IMG/VR virus record: IMGVR_UViG_3300020381_000001
Length of the DNA: 64,000 bases
Source of the DNA: an uncultured virus (IMG/VR IMGVR_UViG_3300020381_000001)
Taxonomy: Duplodnaviria > Heunggongvirae > Uroviricota > Caudoviricetes
Strand: one strand, 5' to 3'
Part shown: positions 481 to 29,815 of the stretch, piece by piece
Numbering within the stretch: the first letter of the stretch is position 1
How the letters are laid out: each line of letters starts with the position of its first letter
Notes under the pieces: generated by a model
Database searches by the model: none
Told to the model about the DNA's origin: nothing
What the model saw: only the letters and a program-made list of their open reading frames with translations
Made by a program: the position numbers and the translations under genes

Positions 481-3400
481 ATGGCAATTAAAATATCAGG
501 CACAACTATTGTTAATGATAGTCGAGTCGTAGAAAATGCAGATAAAATAGGTATTGGTCGGACTACCCCAAGGTATGATCTAGAGATTCTTAGTGATGCT
601 GTTCCTACTGGTATTGCAGTAAGTGTAACAAGTACCCAAGCTACTGAGACAAATAAAGGATTAACAATTTTTAATAATGGTCAGTCACCAACTTTCACGG
701 TTAGTTATAAAGGAAGAGTAGACGCAGAAGAATATTATGGAACATTTAAGGGAACGATTGATACTGGTGTTTCAATAGAGAATGCAAATAATGTTCAAAT
801 AACTGATGATACAACAGGTTCAGGTACACATTATATTCATTTTGGTAGTGCAACAAGTGGTTATGATGGTGTTGAGGTTGATAGCACAGATTTAGTTTAT
901 AAAGATAGAAAAGTTGGTATCGGAACTGATAATCCTACTACAGGAAAATTAGAAATAGCAGATTCTGCACAAACAAATTTACTCACACTTAAAAGAACCT
1001 CTGGTAACTCTGGAGAACTTAGTGTGCAACTTGGTGGTTCAGATCCTGGTGTTATGTTCACTACATCAGGATTAAGTGATGATTTCGTATTTAAACCTGG
1101 TGGTACTGAAAGACTTCGCATCGACTCAAATGGTAGATTACTAAAATCGGGTCAAGCAGCACTAACATCAACATCACTTTCGCATCCTATGCAAGTTGCT
1201 GCTGACAGTTCTGCACAGAATATTGTTTTGTTCGGTAGAGCATCAGATGATATTAGTGCAATAGATTTTTATGAAGCAGATAAGAGTACAAGGTTAGGAG
1301 AAATTCAATATCGTACAAATGAATTAAATATCAGACATCGCTCTGCAGGTGCTGATATAATTTTTGCAACTACCCCTAGTGGTGGTTCACTAGGTGAAAA
1401 AGTTCGCATCGACTCAAATGGTAAATTGGGAATCGGGATGAATTCCGACCAACAAACTGCTTTAAAAGGAAAACTTGATATAGATGCATCTGGAATAGAT
1501 GCTGCTGGTGATACTGATGACCCAAATGATTATGCAATTGTAATTCGTAACCCATCAACAACCAATCAAGGAAATGGTATTGCTTTTACAAATGACTCTG
1601 GTGCTAATGTTGGTGGTGCAATTATTCATATTGATAAAGGATCAAATAATATTGGTGATTTGGCATTCTATACATCTGCCACATCTAATACTCCAGTAGA
1701 AAGACTTCGCATCACTGCCGATGGTCATTTGAAACCTGGTGCCACTGATACTTATGATATAGGAATTGATGCAAGTAATAGATTTAGAACAGTTTATGCA
1801 CAAACATTTAATGGAGCTTTTCAAGGAACCGCAGATGTAGCAGCAAAAGTTGCAGTTGCTGATGAGTCAACAGACACATCATGTTTCCCACTGTTCGCCA
1901 CTGCTGCCACTGGAGACCTTGCAGCAAAGAGTGGTAGTAATCTTACATTTAACTCTAACACAGGTGCACTTGGAGCAACAAGTTTTGTTGGTGGTTTACC
2001 AATTACAGATGGTGCAAATAATCGAATTATCACAGCAACAAGTGCAAGTGCAATAAAAGGTGAAGCAAACTTAACTTTTGATGGTAGCTTGTTGAGTCTT
2101 AGTGGTGATATGCAATTTACTAACACAAATCCAGAGTTAGAATTTAATAATGGAGGTCCAAGATTTAGAGTTCCAGCAGCGAATACACTTGTTATTCATA
2201 ATGGTGGTGGTCTTGGTACAACTGATAATGAAGTACTTCGCATCGATGAGAATGGTAATATTGGAGTAAATGCCACTCCATCAACATCAACCACAGCTGG
2301 ATCATTATACTCTACTGTGGATCATTTCTTGGTTATCGGTGATAGTGATACTGGTATTGCACAAGATGGTGATGGTGAATTTGAAATATGGGCTAACAAT
2401 CAAGAAATAGTTAATTTCAGCACTGTTGGAGTTGATCCAAAGAAAAGTATTTTACCGAGTGGTTCAATTAACATAGGATCAAATACCACAAAGATAAGTC
2501 ATGGATACTTCACCAACATAACTGCAGACAATATCACTGCTGAACTTACTGGTTCAGCTTCCTTACTTGATTTAGCAGATGATACGACTGAAACAGATGG
2601 ATTCATACTTTTTTCAAATGCCAGTGGTGCTGATCAGTCAATTAAGACTAATGATTTTATCAGATATAATGCATCAATTGGATCATTAAATTTATCTAAG
2701 ACTAATGGTGGTATTAAGTTTGGACCAGGAACTGCTACTACTGATGATGCATATATTGAATGGTTGGGTGCTAATAATGCTGGATATCTAAGAATCGCAG
2801 TTTCTGATGATCAGGATGCTGTAGCAACTGCTGAGTATATCGAATTTGGTGATTATAATCTAACAGGTGGATTTAATGCTGCTAATCAAGGTTTCACTCA
2901 ACACGTAAAAATTCAAAGGTCTGAATTTTTAGTTCGCACAGGATCAAATACAATATCTCAGGCAGACAGATTAAAAATTGATAAAAATGGAAATATTGGT
3001 TTTAATTGTGATGCAGCTACAACTGGAACTATATTCACTGAAGTGGATCATTTCATAGCAATAGGTGATAGTGACACTGGTATTGCACAAGATGGTGATG
3101 GACAACTTGAAATATGGGCTAACAATCAAGAAATAGTTAATTTCAGTGCAACTCAAATTACTCCGACTAAGAGTATTGTTCCAAGTGTAACTGATTCATC
3201 ATTAAATTTAGGATCATCATCTAATAGATGGGGAACAATATATGCTGATACACTTGATGGTACTATTAGTGGTACAATATCAAATGCTACAAATGCAGCA
3301 AATATACTAGTAACACAAAGAGACACTAATGCAACACATTATTTGACATTTGTTGCCTCAGATCCAAGTGGAACTAATTTAGCTTTATATGGTGACGATG

Positions 3401-24513: not shown

Positions 24514-25432
24514 TACACATATTGAACACCCCGAAGATACCATTCTAACAGGTAATCTTGATTTCTTGAAGGCAGTCAAGTCTTATATAGTCGCACCACA
24601 TGGTCATGTATCAGTCAAGATTGATGGTTCGCCAGCAATTATATGGGGAACACATCCTGTTACTCATAAGTTTTTTGTTGGCACGAAGTCAGTATTTAAT
24701 CGGAAGTTGATTAAGGTCAACTATACACATAAGGACATTGACAAAAACCATACTGGTTATGTTGCCATTGTGTTACATGCCTGTCTATCCAATCTACCGA
24801 AGACAATCAACATCTATCAGGGAGACTTTCTTGGATTTGGTGGAGAGAGTGTATTCCAACCAAATACAGTTACCTATGTATTTCCTGAGAATGTAGAGCA
24901 GACAATCGTGGTTGCACCACATACACAGTATGAGGTCGATCAATGTACGGACAATGCCAGTTTCAATCCATTGAGAGACACCATTGCAATACCACTCTAT
25001 GATACGTTAGACAGCAATGAGAAGGTTTATTTCTATCAACCAATCGCAATCATGAGTGTGAGTGAGTCATTGAGAAGTCGTATTGACTTTGCACTACAGA
25101 TGGCACAGATGGTCAAATTTGTGAATAAGACCGAAGCAAACCTTTTAAAGGGAGAACTCAATCAGTATATCAGAGAAGGTAAGAAGATTGATTCAAGTGA
25201 TTTCGGAGACTACAATCTAAGTCTCATCGGATTCTATAATCTCATCGTGGAGATCAAAGAAGAACTGTTATCATCCTGTCAGAGCAATCAAGTCGCAATG
25301 ACATTGATCGAAGGAGAGGAGTGTGATGGGGAAGGTTATGTATTCCATAGTGGTTATGGTTCATTTAAATTGGTGGATAGAAGATATTTTAGTTACTATA
25401 ATTTTAATTTGGTAAAGGAGTGGAGCGGTTAA
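24506..25432 (+). CDS. Conserved myophage protein (DUF6267-like) with ligase-type KxDG motif
   Basis: NTHIEHPED, SVKIDGSPAI.WG, YQGDF, EGYV...KLVDR..FS. Confidence 0.65.
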   Translation: MLNTHIEHPEDTILTGNLDFLKAVKSYIVAPHGHVSVKIDGSPAIIWGTHPVTHKFFVGTKSVFNRKLIKVNYTHKDIDKNHTGYVAIVLHACLSNLPKTINIYQGDFLGFGGESVFQPNTVTYVFPENVEQTIVVAPHTQYEVDQCTDNASFNPLRDTIAIPLYDTLDSNEKVYFYQPIAIMSVSESLRSRIDFALQMAQMVKFVNKTEANLLKGELNQYIREGKKIDSSDFGDYNLSLIGFYNLIVEIKEELLSSCQSNQVAMTLIEGEECDGEGYVFHSGYGSFKLVDRRYFSYYNFNLVKEWSG

Positions 25433-25480
25433 TTAACTGTCACACACCACACCCCATATAGTTCAGTATCGGACTATAAT
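25422..25480 (+). promoter_or_regulatory. Palindrome + -10 promoter, copy 7
   Basis: GGAGCGGTTAATTAACTGTCAC-31 nt-TATAAT. Confidence 0.7.
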
Positions 25481-25505
25481 AGTAGTATAAACAAAGAAAA
25501 CCCAC

Positions 25506-26572: not shown

Positions 26573-26919
26573 TGTATCAACCCCACGTCAATGATTATGT
26601 CAGATGGGATCGACATGGACTAAGTGATGAGGGATGGATATATTTTGTAAGTCAACCAACAGAAGATAAGAAGGGATTTCCAGTTACTCGGAGATACTTA
26701 ACCATTGAGGTGGGAGTCAAAAGAAAACCAGAGTGTCAATATGATAAGAGGAATCCACATAATTATGTACATATTCTTCTATTATGTTATGAATCACAAT
26801 GGAAAGAGTTGAGATATGTAAAGAAAAGAAAGAGTCGGTATGATGATTCAATCGTACTTGAATCCAAAGAGATTGGGTCTGGAAGTACGGCAACTCAGAA
26901 TACTCACAGAGGACAGTGA
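26572..26919 (+). CDS. Hypothetical protein
   Basis: 115-aa ORF with a coupled start. Confidence 0.7.
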   Translation: MYQPHVNDYVRWDRHGLSDEGWIYFVSQPTEDKKGFPVTRRYLTIEVGVKRKPECQYDKRNPHNYVHILLLCYESQWKELRYVKKRKSRYDDSIVLESKEIGSGSTATQNTHRGQ

Positions 26920-27080
26920 CTTTGTATTGTATGATACACAAATACCTTTTATTTAATTAAAAAAGGTTATTTTAAATATAAAAGAGTGTTTTATACCGAT
27001 GAGTAATCTGTTTAGAATCTGTAGGGAATCTTAATGGATTATGTACCTTATAAATGGGTCTGAGACTTGTGACCTTTGCG

Positions 27081-27109
27081 AGCATAGCATAAGGATCGCA
27101 GTCCGTCAA
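27081..27109 (-). promoter_or_regulatory. sigma70-type promoter on the minus strand with no ATG-started ORF downstream
   Basis: TTGACG-17-TATGCT with an extended TG. Confidence 0.55.
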
Positions 27110-27188
27110 GTATCAGGATCGGGCAAATTTTACATAATGTCACAATTAGTACAGAAGTATTATAAATATATTGTTACATTATATGAAT

Positions 27189-27363
27189 CTCGACTAGATG
27201 TGGGGCATTATGCTTGACAACTCGACGAGATTGCACTATAATAACAGTATACAATTCAAAACTCGACTAGATCTTATGTACGACGATTTAGATTTCGACT
27301 ATACAACAGATCAAGCATTCAATCTCGACGAGGACTATGCAGATAGGTTAGAACTCGACGAGA
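27189..27363 (+). repeat. Six phased (C/T)TCGAC(G/T)A(G/T)(A/G) 10-mers
   Basis: Copies start at 27189, 27221, 27262, 27294, 27324 and 27354. Confidence 0.75.
27214..27242 (+). promoter_or_regulatory. Consensus sigma70 promoter with a repeat unit in its spacer
   Basis: TTGACA-17-TATAAT. Confidence 0.8.
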
Positions 27364-27428
27364 ATGATGATGACCATGCACGAGAAACTACAAACTTTCA
27401 AGAGCTTGCTTATCAGCATTATGCATGA
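27276..27428 (+). CDS. Small, very acidic protein (50 aa)
   Basis: Start moved to MYDDLDF, downstream of the promoter. Confidence 0.6.
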   Translation: MYDDLDFDYTTDQAFNLDEDYADRLELDENDDDHARETTNFQELAYQHYA

Positions 27429-27469
27429 TGTATAAGTACGAGATTTGCATTATAGTAAATCAGACTACA

Positions 27470-27498
27470 AAACCCCATTCTAGAGGGAGATGGGGTTC
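27470..27498. terminator. Hairpin between convergent genes, probably a terminator (best T-tract on the minus strand)
   Basis: AACCCCAT...ATGGGGTT stem preceded by an A-run. Confidence 0.55.
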
Positions 27499-27568
27499 TA
27501 GATTCTAGTACCTAGTTTTGAATTAACTAAACTCTTGGACGTGGGAAATCCAAGAGTTTTTTTTTTGT

Positions 27569-27721
27569 TTAATATTCTTCTGAGTCCCATGAGTCTAGAT
27601 CGAGATCATATCTCAGATCCTTACGAATCGCATTCATCTCATATGAGTCGTATATTGCGGCTGGATCCTCATTCCAGATCCGTACGATCTCATCGTATAC
27701 TTCAGTTGTTAATTCTTTCAT
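27569..27721 (-). CDS. Small acidic hypothetical protein (50 aa, MKELTTEVYDEIVRIW...)
   Basis: Start abuts the stop of the upstream minus-strand ORF. Not in the track. Confidence 0.65.
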   Translation of the reverse strand: MKELTTEVYDEIVRIWNEDPAAIYDSYEMNAIRKDLRYDLDLDSWDSEEY

Positions 27722-27874
27722 TTATTGTGCCATCCCTAGAAATTTGTCCATTGCCATAACTTGTGCCTGTTTATAAGCATCGGCATAAAATAGAGAATCC
27801 TCGGAAATACCAATTTCTTCGAGTGCCTCTTCGAAGCATGTTTCTAAAAGTGATTCGTGATGTAGTGTGGACAT
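27722..27874 (-). CDS. Small hypothetical protein (50 aa, MSTLHHESLLETCFEEA...)
   Basis: First ORF after the minus-strand palindrome promoter. Not in the track. Confidence 0.7.
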   Translation of the reverse strand: MSTLHHESLLETCFEEALEEIGISEDSLFYADAYKQAQVMAMDKFLGMAQ

Positions 27875-27899
27875 TTTTGTTAATTCGTTTGATATATTC

Positions 27900-27957
27900 A
27901 ATATAGAATGTATTTGGATTGAATGGGGTTTTTGTGTGCCACTAGTGTAACTGGCAC
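27900..27957 (-). promoter_or_regulatory. Palindrome + -10 promoter, copy 8 (minus strand)
   Basis: GTGCCACTAGTGTAACTGGCAC at 27936-27957; TATATT 30 nt away on the minus strand. Confidence 0.75.
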
Positions 27958-27959
27958 AT

Positions 27960-28020
27960 GTTTACTATAAGTGCGCGGGAGGAGTGTCGAAAGTTTATAG
28001 TGAGTCCTACCCCGGACCTA
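27960..28020 (-). ncRNA. Candidate ~60-nt small RNA
   Basis: GC-rich ORF-less unit between two promoters. 5' hairpin GTCC/GGAC, then stem ACTATAA/TTATAGT with ACTCCTCCC in the loop. Confidence 0.5.
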
Positions 28021-28025
28021 TTCTT

Positions 28026-28119
28026 ATTATAAACGATCATCGTATACAATCCATATAGAGTGTGCCACTTTATTAACTGGTACATAGTGGATGACTTTCG
28101 TATGAATATACATTATAAT
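28026..28119. promoter_or_regulatory. Bidirectional palindrome promoter, copy 9
   Basis: ATTATA(28026-31)-30 nt-GTGCCACTTTATTAACTGGTAC(28062-83)-30 nt-TATAAT(28114-19). Confidence 0.85.
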
Positions 28120-28125
28120 AAGTAC

Positions 28126-28245
28126 ATAAGAGATTTTTAATTACACTTGGTAAACAAGTTAGCATAAAATCTCATGAGATAGAGTTGTTACCGCCCCAAC
28201 CGAGATAATTTCAAAGGAAAGGTTTACGTGACTCTATTCTCTTAA
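28126..28245 (+). ncRNA. Candidate structured 5' leader
   Basis: Stem GAGATTTT/AAAATCTC enclosing ACTTG/CAAGT, then stem GAGATAGAGT/ACTCTATTCTC. Confidence 0.45.
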
Positions 28246-28267
28246 ATTCTTTATTCCCTTTTCCCTT

Positions 28268-28732
28268 ATGCCTAATTGGTGTTCAAACAGAGTTGATGTT
28301 TACTCAGAAAACAAAACTGATTTACAAAAGGTCTTGGATATATTCAGTAATAAGGAATCCGTATTTGGTAAAGTCATTCCCGAACCCGACTGGATGAATA
28401 TTCCACAGAATGGAGAATTACCAAAGAAGAGAGAGATGAAAGCTCCAAACGGCGAGGTATTCACAACAGTCACAGAATTTGCTGACGGTTCACAGGATAC
28501 CAGATGGTATGACTGGCGAAATGAAAATTGGGATACTAAGTGGGATGTCGCGGGTAGTGTTAAAGTTGAGGAGGAAAGATGGAAAGATGATTTAGAATCG
28601 TTTACAGCTAACTTTCAAACCGCATGGGCTCCACCCGAAGGAATTTGTATGCGATTGCGTCAACTGTTTCCGAATGTCAACATCTCATGGTTCTATGATG
28701 AACCAGGAATGGAAAATGCAGGTTATCTATAG
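28268..28732 (+). CDS. DUF1281/YubB-like ferredoxin-fold protein
   Basis: MPNWC.N, WYDWR..NW.TKWD, F.TAW.PP and FYDEPG motifs. Confidence 0.75.
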   Translation: MPNWCSNRVDVYSENKTDLQKVLDIFSNKESVFGKVIPEPDWMNIPQNGELPKKREMKAPNGEVFTTVTEFADGSQDTRWYDWRNENWDTKWDVAGSVKVEEERWKDDLESFTANFQTAWAPPEGICMRLRQLFPNVNISWFYDEPGMENAGYL

Positions 28733-28789
28733 GACAGTTATATTACTGTCACAATCAATACCCCATTCGTAGTAGTGGGGTATTATAAT
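28731..28789 (+). promoter_or_regulatory. Palindrome + hairpin + -10 promoter, copy 10
   Basis: AGGACAGTTATATTACTGTCAC, an AATACCCCA/TGGGGTATT hairpin, and TATAAT at 31 nt. Confidence 0.8.
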
Positions 28790-28819
28790 AGAAGTATAAA
28801 CAAAGGGAGTTCCCAACCT

Positions 28820-29098
28820 ATGCCCAAACCAGAAATACATTTTAGTCCAGTCTTCGGAATGGGATTCTACATCGATGCAGACGGCACTTTTATGAGTATG
28901 CCAGTATTTGAGGACTCAAACGGACGCACGACTATGGACGTTGAGAATGAGATTCCCGTTAAAGAGTGGGGCAATACTGATGCCTACACTACAGACCATA
29001 TACAGGTACTGGCACAGATAATGGAGATCTGCACTCTCAAACGTGACTATGTAAACATCGGTTATTATGCAGAAAGATTTGGGAGGGTGGCAGCATGA
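28820..29098 (+). CDS. Hypothetical early protein
   Basis: Start moved to MPKPEI, after the promoter. Confidence 0.7.
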   Translation: MPKPEIHFSPVFGMGFYIDADGTFMSMPVFEDSNGRTTMDVENEIPVKEWGNTDAYTTDHIQVLAQIMEICTLKRDYVNIGYYAERFGRVAA

Positions 29099-29298
29099 GA
29101 CTAAATGAAGGAATTAACATCGAAGTAACACCATCTCAGTATGACTACCTATACGAAGTATTAATGGAAGCATACTCAAACGACGTGGCAGAGCAGAAAG
29201 GTTGGGACGTGCAGACATTCGACAATCTAATTGATAACGTATGTAATGGTAAGTCTACCATACTTTCAAACGATGTCAAAGGGATTATGCCAGTTTAA
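29095..29298 (+). CDS. Hypothetical protein
   Basis: GGAGG RBS and ATGA overlap. Confidence 0.7.
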   Translation: MRLNEGINIEVTPSQYDYLYEVLMEAYSNDVAEQKGWDVQTFDNLIDNVCNGKSTILSNDVKGIMPV

Positions 29299-29344
29299 TT
29301 ACTGGCACATACCCACTACACACCGTCTACTTATCGGTTATAAT
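29287..29344 (+). promoter_or_regulatory. Palindrome + -10 promoter, copy 11
   Basis: ATGCCAGTTTAATTACTGGCAC-30 nt-TATAAT. Confidence 0.8.
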
Positions 29345-29377
29345 AAGTACATAAGCAATTCACCCCCTCTTCCCAAC

Positions 29378-29734
29378 ATGCGTAAAATTGAACAGCAAAT
29401 GAATTCAGCAATCCGTTACAAGCAGAATTTCACAAAAGCAAATACAATGGTTCGTTATGACAAGGCAGAGAACCTAAGTTCCGTTTACTTACACGGGCAT
29501 CGCATTGCAGACTATGACCACAGCAAAGGTAAAGCATGGATCAGTTCATGCGGATGGGAGACTAACACCACAAAATCCAGACTTAATGCGTTCTTAGATG
29601 AGGTTGCTTTCGGTGTATCCGTATTTCAAAAGAACTGGCAGTGGTTCCTACATGATGGACGCACCACGGCAACGATTGACTTTTATGATCGTATGGTAGT
29701 ATTTTCCAAACCTCTCAGCATGTACCTAGTGTGA
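29378..29734 (+). CDS. Phage early protein of unknown function (LHG..IA...GW.T.TTKSRLNA)
   Basis: Start moved to MRKIEQQM, after the promoter. Confidence 0.7.
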   Translation: MRKIEQQMNSAIRYKQNFTKANTMVRYDKAENLSSVYLHGHRIADYDHSKGKAWISSCGWETNTTKSRLNAFLDEVAFGVSVFQKNWQWFLHDGRTTATIDFYDRMVVFSKPLSMYLV

Positions 29735-29788
29735 CGGTTTAACAACTGTCCATTCGTTACCCCATTCGTATGGGTGGGGTATTATAAT
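29731..29788 (+). promoter_or_regulatory. Palindrome + hairpin + -10 promoter, copy 12
   Basis: GTGACGGTTTAACAACTGTCCA, a TACCCCA/TGGGGTA hairpin, and TATAAT at 30 nt. Confidence 0.75.
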
Positions 29789-29815
29789 AATAGTATAAAC
29801 AAACAATTTCCCTAA

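Follow-up and report, generated by a model that had tools for sequence, protein, structure and literature searches.

Within a 64,000-nucleotide (nt) stretch of DNA from an uncultured virus of the Caudoviricetes (IMG/VR record IMGVR_UViG_3300020381_000001), hereafter the window, we describe a minus-strand unit of about 70 nt which, as judged by comparing its sequence with that of relatives, is non-coding RNA, conserved among marine cyanomyoviruses, equipped with a promoter and matching no Rfam family. The phages that carry it are the Kyanoviridae and their kin. In our view it is highly probable that the unit is a real minus-strand RNA element under selection. The further proposal, that it is an independent early small RNA (sRNA) gene of T4-like cyanophages acting in trans through an unpaired block, stands in our opinion at even chances. 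A sequence-only reading of this DNA had proposed an sRNA candidate without open reading frame (ORF), issued from the minus arm of a bidirectional promoter; this proposal is upheld by a conserved promoter, by G-U covariation that fits the minus strand only, by the lack of a conserved frame and by the three orientations in which the module is found. The unit is composed as follows:

27951-28023, minus strand: RNA unit according to the covariance model of the family, about 70 nt, sole match of cmsearch in the 64-kb window (67.8 bits, E = 1.7e-20).
28003-28018, minus strand: 5' hairpin P1 (GGUCC, loop GGGGUA, GGACU), with covariation in all 5 pairs.
27983-27996, minus strand: conserved unpaired block AAACUUUCGACACU, invariant columns of alignment A2, family consensus AAAyyUUCGwCAC(U).
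27973-27982, minus strand: clade-specific C-rich stretch CCUCCCGCGC, which the sequence-only reading had taken for an anti-Shine-Dalgarno (anti-SD) motif.
27960-27972, minus strand: A/U-rich 3' flank ACUUAUAGUAAAC, which in relatives reads AAUUAUAAU and is -10-like on both strands.

In the family, P1 is followed in the 3' direction by an A-rich linker, the AAAyyUUCGwCAC(U) block, a variable stretch (CCUCCC, CCCCCU, CACCCU, CAAGCA, CAUGCU or CAGGGA, for example), a conserved GC and an A/U-rich tail, which is often AAUUAUAAU. A search of the window for the two-block pattern gave a single occurrence, for 0.00 expected, and the start of the RNA is predicted near 28019. The sequence quoted in the sequence-only reading is exactly the reverse complement of 27961-28018, and its description as GC-rich is correct, the core (27971-28019) having a GC content of 0.57 compared with 0.33 for the window. 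Taken alone, the unit has a folding energy close to that of shuffled sequences (z = -0.98 and -0.06); its reality rests on comparative evidence.

Relatives were collected by using the neighbouring 154-amino-acid (aa) protein, which has a DUF1281_C / Api92-like domain, as an anchor. IMG/VR holds 128 relatives of this protein, of which 80 loci (designated below by L numbers) were taken; 7 of them align through the gap that contains the unit, with a nearly invariant core and widely divergent flanks. The near-invariant stretch reads, on the plus strand, GCGCGGGAG..GTG.CGAA..TTT......AGTCCTACCCC.GACCTAT. Diverged versions recovered from weaker profile matches were then put into a pattern, with which 58 IMG/VR stretches were found. 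A regular expression applied to the RNA-sense strand of the window and the loci gave 75 matches, corresponding to 44 distinct sequences; 13 of these (L145, L150, L151, L155, L173, L177, L186, L192, L193, L196, L198, L200 and L201) were dropped as chance matches, on account of a GC-rich or coding context and the lack of hairpin and promoter, which left 31 distinct copies. Alignment A2 contains 28 of the 31, L175, L179 and L182 having been left out as near-duplicates of L160, L158 and L159. A wide pattern, GGGGTA..TTCGWCACT, was also tried on IMG/VR and was not used, the matches listed being mostly due to chance.

The unit is also frequent outside of IMG/VR. A scan of marine metagenomes with the same pattern as in IMG/VR returned at least 122 stretches; 80 loci were scanned with the model and 30 of them match it (27 over the full length with E <= 3.5e-18, 1 truncated and 2 weak), providing additional P1 stem variants. 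Among cultured phages, S-SSM7, S-SSM6a, P-SSM2, P-SSM5 and P-HM1 have the unit. The model search gave one match each in the window, S-SSM7, P-SSM2 and P-SSM5; in P-HM1 we observed one convincing match (E = 2.6e-5) and a second one at chance level (E = 0.58). In S-PM2 and P-SSM4 the same search yielded chance-level scores only (E about 0.5), and in five picocyanobacterial genomes the phage RNA model found nothing (best E 0.3). By blastn, neither the window unit nor the L159-type and L038-type queries had a match in cultured phages.

When A2 was submitted to RNAalifold, one helix only was obtained, between columns 6-10 and 17-21, which correspond to 28003-28018 in the window, that is, to P1. Compensatory changes are present in all five pairs: 139 of the 140 cells pair, compared with 76.9% in shuffles, and the covariation score is 0.805 instead of 0.302, a value reached by 0 of 500 shuffles. 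Sliding the partner columns by 1-3 makes the pairing fall to 24-58%. Twelve stem variants were counted, among which GGUCC/GGACU, GAUUC/GGAUC, GUUCG/CGAAC, GAUCG/CGAUC, GGUGA/UCACC, GGUGC/GCACU and AGUCA/UGACU; the loop is GGGGUA in 24 copies out of 28 and AGGGUA in 4. Covariation across cyanophages, which the sequence-only reading had put forward as a check, was thus found for P1. In addition, 28 of the P1 cells are G-U pairs. On the opposite strand these turn to C-A, leaving 111/140 cells paired. The G-U pairs therefore fit only the minus strand, which indicates that the selected molecule is the minus-strand transcript, and neither the plus strand nor the double-stranded DNA as such.

Two stems with ACUCCUCCC in the loop had been drawn in the sequence-only reading. 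The first of them, GGUCC/GGACU (28003-28018), is the strongly covarying P1, but the second, ACUAUAA/UUAUAGU, is paired at 55.2% compared with 53.6% in shuffles, and UCCUCCC is not looped in the lowest-energy fold: when the window sequence is folded to minimum energy, it is paired with GGG-U-AGGA. This long helix is itself devoid of covariation, being paired at 52.7% compared with 54.1% in shuffles. The unpaired block has no covarying partner column in A2, and an all-against-all scan of the A2 columns gave, beyond P1, isolated pairs only. Columns 11-33 pair trivially because the G-rich loop faces a pyrimidine run. A helix that would close the unit between its 5' and 3' ends was considered and rejected on duplex energies (on average -9.8 kcal/mol for cognate and -9.1 kcal/mol for swapped partners); values above shuffles were seen only for L031, L174 and L158.

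The strand specificity of P1 has to be set against a possible role of the region as DNA, for instance as a protein-binding site or as an origin of replication where a promoter-driven R-loop provides the primer, of which oriF and oriG of T4 are examples. One convincing copy per genome and a strong promoter adjoining a GC-rich, then an AT-rich stretch would suit such an element. An R-loop origin, however, does not need a hairpin with strand-specific G-U covariation; moreover, the 3' part of the RNA is C-rich and not G-rich, and the unit is missing from P-HM2 and Syn9. We consider a DNA-level element extremely unlikely.

The minus-strand RNA unit is preceded by a promoter of its own and followed by a second one, made of these elements:

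28061-28084, on both strands as a palindrome: 24-base-pair (bp) palindrome TGTGCCACTTTATTAACTGGTACA, upstream element of a bidirectional early-type promoter.
28026-28031, minus strand: -10 box TATAAT of the RNA's promoter, a perfect hexamer about 7 nt before the unit.
27935-27958, on both strands as a palindrome: next 24-bp palindrome, upstream element of the promoter of a small-gene pair, centred 41.5 nt away from the minus-strand TATATT.
27900-27905, minus strand: -10 box TATATT of this downstream promoter, about 25 nt before the ATG at 27874.

The palindrome pattern has 2 copies in the window, for 0.00 expected. The centre of the palindrome 28061-28084 lies at 28072.5, which is 41.5 nt from the plus-strand TATAAT at 28114-28119 and likewise 41.5 nt from the minus-strand TATAAT (28031->28026); the unit had thus been correctly described as the minus arm of a bidirectional promoter that then meets the next palindrome, 27935-27958. 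With a -10 box about 7 nt before it and a palindrome behind it, the quoted unit runs from the -10 box to the next cassette. In the window, the cassette is a 24-bp palindrome at a fixed distance from the -10 box with no canonical -35. We take this association of a palindrome and TATAAT to be an early-gene promoter element of T4-like cyanophages, the source for which is said to be Doron et al. in 2016. In such an early-type cassette, host RNA polymerase would start about 7 nt after the TATAAT 28031->28026.

The promoter is conserved together with the hairpin. In 27 of the 28 copies of A2, a hexamer with at most one mismatch to TATAAT is found 4-22 nt upstream of the hairpin, and in 25 it is exact. 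A palindrome (at least 7/9 arm positions complementary) is present in 21/28 copies; the distance between its centre and the -10 box is 41-42 nt for 14 copies and 51-53 nt for the other 7. An exact TTGACA was observed in 7/28 copies, with a spacer of 17 nt in 6 and of 16 nt in L170; the S-SSM7-like group has an exact TTGACA-17-TATAAT. Another palindrome cassette follows 20-100 nt further on in most copies. In the window, other palindrome-plus-TATAAT cassettes precede further small genes nearby (repeat families D1-D3 and D7). At 25443-25495, 28752-28804 and 29751-29803, a GC-rich hairpin (ACCCCA...TGGGGT) stands between palindrome and TATAAT (repeat family D1); these hairpin cassettes resemble the promoter-with-stem-loop cassettes of T4-type phages.

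We also examined the coding capacity of the unit. The statement that it has no ATG holds for the quoted stretch, but a 47-aa frame (27942-28085), which begins inside the upstream palindrome, crosses the unit; it is not conserved. Stops are found in all six frames across the core in L046, the sense frames are all closed in L005 and the antisense frames are all closed in L018, while the linker has indels of 2 and 4 nt in A2. A protein-coding micro-ORF was rejected since no frame is kept open across relatives and the indels are not multiples of three.

Searches for known RNA families were equally negative. With Rfam 15, no family was obtained at the gathering threshold for the whole window, and region 27850-28130 had no match at E <= 10, including with the Yfr1, Yfr10 and Cyano-1 models. 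At E <= 1, the loci of 7 relatives matched only TarA, RsaF and NRON, at chance level and far below thresholds. On host loci used as a positive control, Yfr1 was detected with 59.7 and 69.2 bits, Yfr10 with 60.8 bits and Cyano-1 with 64.2-67.2 bits. A scan of the whole window for tRNA and tmRNA gave none. In the literature on small and non-coding RNAs of cyanophages we found no description of the unit, the Syn9 transcriptome (Doron et al. 2016) lying outside this comparison.

The sequence-only reading had attributed to the unit the function of an anti-SD mimic resembling the cyanobacterial sRNA Yfr1. As far as the descriptor section of Voss et al. 2007 goes (PMC2190773), Yfr1 consists of a 5' hairpin of 5-10 bp with a loop of 3-8 nt, an unpaired stretch of 12-20 nt with an exact ACUCCUCACAC (RNAMotif, zero mismatches) and a GC-rich 3' hairpin of 6-9 bp with a U tail. 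Of these features the unit has the first only, P1 being of 5 bp with a 6-nt loop. Its closest stretch to the motif, ACUCCUCCCGC, agrees at 9/11 positions, and neither strand of the window has an exact copy. In the 31 copies of the family the 11-mer is never exact (9/11 in 5, 8/11 in 1, 7/11 in 15, 6/11 in 9 and 5/11 in 1). The distance from the end of P1 (28003) to the palindrome hairpin (27958) is about 44 nt compared with 12-20 nt, and in 21 of the 23 copies scanned, that of the window included, the 130 nt next to P1 are free of terminator-like sites. CCUCC itself is found in 6/31 copies, all from the window's own clade, the close relatives L005 and L006 having CACCACUCCC instead; a lack of conservation of this loop among relatives had been named beforehand as an argument against the mimic. 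Since, in addition, the Rfam models for Yfr1 and Yfr10 remain silent at E <= 10 while their controls are positive, a Yfr1-like or anti-SD seed is rejected as the function of the whole family.

A clade-restricted version of this idea was weighed separately. In the window clade, a 9-nt run, ACACUCCUC, which includes the UCCU core, is shared with a Synechococcus-type Yfr1, and might pair with GGAGG-type sites, with Yfr1 targets (porin mRNAs) or with the sponge Yfr2; for this common run a clade-specific seed is kept as a low-probability reading. The agreement at 9/11 positions in this clade and the layout, a 5' hairpin and then an unpaired C-rich stretch, also recall Yfr1. Mutation of UCCU abolished target binding by Yfr1, according to the target-binding results of Lambrecht et al. 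2019 (PMC6778093), so that the run includes the part of the motif needed for it. Of the 9 letters of ACACUCCUC, 6 belong to the family-wide block and the rest is clade-specific. Against this reading, CCUCC is lost in close relatives, the Yfr1 and Yfr10 models do not respond, the descriptor fails on motif, spacer and terminator, and the motif is paired in the lowest-energy fold of the window. Potential targets are not enriched either: up to 2 mismatches, GGAGGAGTGTCG matches only itself in the window, GAGGAGTGT has one other site, at 25316, and GAGGAGUGU occurs only once elsewhere, for 0.41 expected. By comparison, the exact Yfr1 motif occurs 2-5 times in each of five picocyanobacterial genomes and its reversed pattern 0-1 times. 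Taken together, we judge a Yfr1/Yfr10-like seed in the window clade very unlikely.

A wider and rather speculative proposal, which we regard as improbable, is that the unit is the founding member of a new family of early riboregulators transcribed by the host polymerase, whose variable stretch would be a swappable seed that converged on Yfr1/Yfr10 in the window clade and could act in the Yfr1-Yfr2-Yfr10 network. If true, the window-clade RNA could repress Yfr1 targets (porins, mRNAs of carbon and energy metabolism) or soak up the sponge Yfr2.

The 3' flank of the RNA has a peculiarity of its own. The palindromic AATTATAAT (A2 columns 54-62; window 27960-27972) is -10-like on both strands. When the A at position 2 and the T at position 6 were kept and at most one mismatch allowed, an opposite-strand -10-like hexamer was found 12-18 nt after CAC in 22/28 copies of the alignment, compared with 17% of control windows. 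As the element is a palindrome, these hexamers are also scored on the sense strand, in 21/28 copies. On sequence grounds this element may be a facing promoter, involved in transcriptional interference or giving an antisense partner, and may equally be part of the 3' end of the RNA. A convergent module would place two promoters face to face about 60-75 bp apart, with AATTATAAT as the -10 box of the opposite strand, and would time the opposite-strand genes (28268 in the window) by interference or by a sense/antisense pair. Besides the enrichment, it is favoured by L148, L160 and L190, of the S-SSM7-like group, which read TTGATATAAT, an extended -10, and by the opposite strand leading to genes in S-SSM7, P-SSM2, the window and L018-type contigs. 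However, the window copy is a degenerate TATAAG that fails the strict definition, the L159 and L158 types have no such element, the opposite strand leads to no gene in P-HM1, and the sense-strand scores are nearly as frequent. The G-U pairs of the hairpin, moreover, show selection on the minus-strand RNA and not merely on DNA, and this RNA is under selection whichever role the 3'-flank element has. We therefore hold a convergent module to be quite unlikely.

The arrangement of the unit favours an independent gene. S-SSM7 and P-SSM2 carry it inside a 400-480 nt gap, where it is opposed to every flanking annotated gene; in P-HM1, it is co-oriented with its neighbours, downstream of a homologue of the DUF1281-like protein (39% identity); and the window, like the L018, L031, L038 and L046 types, shows it in divergent orientation to the DUF1281-like gene. 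A self-contained and mobile module of promoter plus RNA found in three arrangements argues for a gene of its own. In S-SSM7 (L202), two short genes are annotated opposite the RNA, SSSM7_085 (61 aa, GTG start, 1444-1629) and SSSM7_084 (32 aa, 1662-1760); overlapping as they do the RNA and its consensus promoter, they may be annotation artefacts. We also noticed two further same-strand promoter modules in the gaps of P-SSM2 (L322, 1479-1800) and S-SSM7 (L202, 1517-1770): the second P-SSM2 module is a palindrome with TATAAT and one S-SSM7 module is TTGATA-17-TATAAT, and behind each additional module comes a short sequence able to form a hairpin (CUUAGGCGGCACACCUAAG in P-SSM2, for example). These gaps may be clusters of small transcription units directed against the flanking genes.

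Concerning the 3' end, the L159/L164 subfamily has CGACACUCAGGGAGUCG and then U8 directly after the block, which predicts, from the sequence, an RNA of about 75 nt; a second terminator comes next. In L170, a single terminator-like site is located about 130 nt downstream, past the next cassette. In the window, the palindrome 27935-27958 would form as RNA a hairpin of 7-8 bp without U tail, followed by CAAAAACC. Of the features expected of an independent sRNA gene, the unit thus has its own promoter, a conserved hairpin and no coding capacity, and its 3' end is predicted only in L159/L164. We propose that a discrete RNA of about 65-90 nt would accumulate, with its 3' end in the window lying close to, or in, the hairpin that the next palindrome forms, that the 5' hairpin would protect the end of this RNA, and that the unpaired block would act in trans, either by base pairing or by binding a protein.

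Several observations weigh against an independent RNA acting in this way. In 21 of the 23 copies scanned, including that of the window, there is no canonical terminator after the block, so that read-through into the downstream cassette is possible in most copies. In L159/L164, the conserved CGACACUC is the 5' arm of the terminator stem, which means that the block can be engaged in pairing. At the position of P1, a hairpin is retained in P-SSM2 and P-HM1, but its loop is different. The model search finds no unit in P-HM2 and Syn9, indicating that it is dispensable or replaceable. Counted at the level of seeds, sequences complementary to the block are no more frequent in S-SSM7, P-SSM2 and P-HM1 than a reversed-pattern control, and in five picocyanobacterial genomes they do not exceed this control (15 vs 23 and 13 vs 28, for example). 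In the same seed-level count, the window has one site with 3 mismatches, for 0.23 expected, and is not enriched. Finally, contigs from RNA libraries were sought over 26800-29400 in four runs (X17-X20), two of oligo-dT libraries and two of metagenome libraries whose RNA origin is a guess. The unit is covered, and connected to both neighbours, by contigs of low depth from relatives that are 90-99% alike; ends, strand and level cannot be read from them, and they may be DNA or read-through.

Part of these observations would be explained if the unit were a promoter-proximal leader, that is, the 5' part of longer early transcripts reading into the small genes 27874->27569. Its 5' hairpin would stabilise the mRNA, for example against 5'-end-dependent RNase E, any short species arising only as a by-product. 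Such an arrangement is known as an actuaton, in which, in the terms of the part of PMC6596454 that treats it, one promoter gives a small RNA and, via read-through, a downstream mRNA. A co-oriented small gene is present within 90-250 nt in the window, P-HM1 and P-SSM5, the terminator is missing in the 21 copies mentioned above, and some contigs of relatives extend over both the unit and the gene downstream of it (X18 record 8, 27305-28174), a weak argument as these may be DNA. The downstream genes, however, have a full cassette of their own, with palindrome and -10 box, and they differ between phages; in S-SSM7 and P-SSM2 no co-oriented gene is annotated behind the unit and the flanking genes run in the opposite direction; the L159 type has a stem and U8, then a second terminator; and a hairpin that only stabilises leaves the invariant unpaired block unexplained. 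We consider it unlikely, though worth keeping in mind, that the unit is merely such a leader.

The variability of the locus is illustrated by P-HM2 (L336, about 1400-1490, minus strand of the locus), where the syntenic gap, at the place occupied by the RNA in P-HM1, has a similar cassette with a palindrome and TAGAAT, and behind it a different short hairpin unit, GAGUGUCUCA...UGAGACUC. Between the near-identical P-HM1 and P-HM2, an exchange of the small unit thus seems to have taken place.

The virus is a T4-like cyanomyovirus. Among the products encoded in the window are baseplate and head-completion proteins of T4 type, giant structural proteins, a Kyano_Gp96 domain and 2OG-Fe(II) oxygenases. 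Nearly all genes of the window are on the plus strand, and the unit sits inside a gap of 393 nt, between a short minus-strand island and a plus-strand gene. The flanking genes are:

27722-27874, minus strand: gene of a 50-aa acidic protein, first gene downstream on the strand of the RNA (phrog_14136, E = 2.8e-7).
27569-27721, minus strand: gene of a second 50-aa acidic protein, which closes the short minus-strand island and is followed by the hairpin 27531-27568.
28268-28732, plus strand: gene of the 154-aa protein with a DUF1281_C / Api92-like domain (phrog_20518, 3.9e-34; PF18406, 1.4e-6).

A Pfam search with the 50-aa protein 27722-27874 gave no match, and in the nearest virus record (G001) the region of the unit is missing. 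In contigs of relatives from three runs, 85 nt at window positions 28174-28260 are replaced by 14 other letters; this change lies just upstream of the gene at 28268, and the length of its leader thus varies among close relatives. Hairpins were seen at 27471-27500 and 27531-27568, where the plus-strand genes and the minus-strand island converge. The latter, CTCTTGGA...TCCAAGAG, is preceded by an A run and followed by a T run on the plus strand, and therefore resembles a two-way terminator. A unit of about 18 nt with AACTCGAC(G/T)AGAT is repeated at 27190-27364 (family D6, plus partial copies); the copies lie within and just before a 76-aa frame, 27198-27428.

The unit is present in phages that can be cultivated with their hosts, S-SSM7 with Synechococcus WH8109, P-SSM2 with Prochlorococcus NATL1A and P-HM1 with MED4, and it is common in marine metagenomes. 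The question of whether abundant ocean viruses reprogram their hosts early in infection with small RNAs is thereby made testable, and the UUCGwCAC block together with the GGGGUA loop offers a defined handle for pull-downs and mutagenesis. Should the unit be only a leader element, it would still be a conserved 5' structure on early transcripts. Such a structure would matter in this system, for which a manipulation of host RNase E in the course of infection is known.

Among known systems, the host sRNAs Yfr1 (RF01116) and Yfr10 (RF02362) resemble the unit as short RNAs with a 5' hairpin and then an unpaired, C-rich conserved stretch, but Yfr1 has no counterpart to the UUCGwCAC block and the GGGGUA loop of the phage family. 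Actuatons such as Yfr2c of Synechocystis show how the unit could work in the window, given the small genes located behind it on its own strand; here, however, the downstream genes carry their own cassette, and S-SSM7 and P-SSM2 have no co-oriented annotated gene. In cyanophages themselves, an antisense RNA of psbA is known. The wcaG, manA, glnA and abiF RNA motifs were reportedly recorded in cyanophages by Weinberg et al. in 2010. Like the unit, they are structured RNAs whose conservation in cyanomyoviruses came to light when genomes were compared, but wcaG, manA and glnA, abiF standing apart, are cis-regulatory leaders of defined genes, whereas the unit brings a promoter of its own and is tied to no particular gene downstream; in the Rfam searches it matches none of the four. 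RNA motifs already recorded in cyanophage genomes are also mentioned in the part of the S-CREM1 paper that deals with them (PMC9964418). With the early promoter cassettes of T4-like cyanophages the link is direct, as the unit is driven by one of these cassettes and followed by another. The other cassettes of the window lead directly into protein genes, whereas here a structured RNA stands between two of them. The cassette is the promoter; the novelty is the conserved structured RNA between two cassettes.

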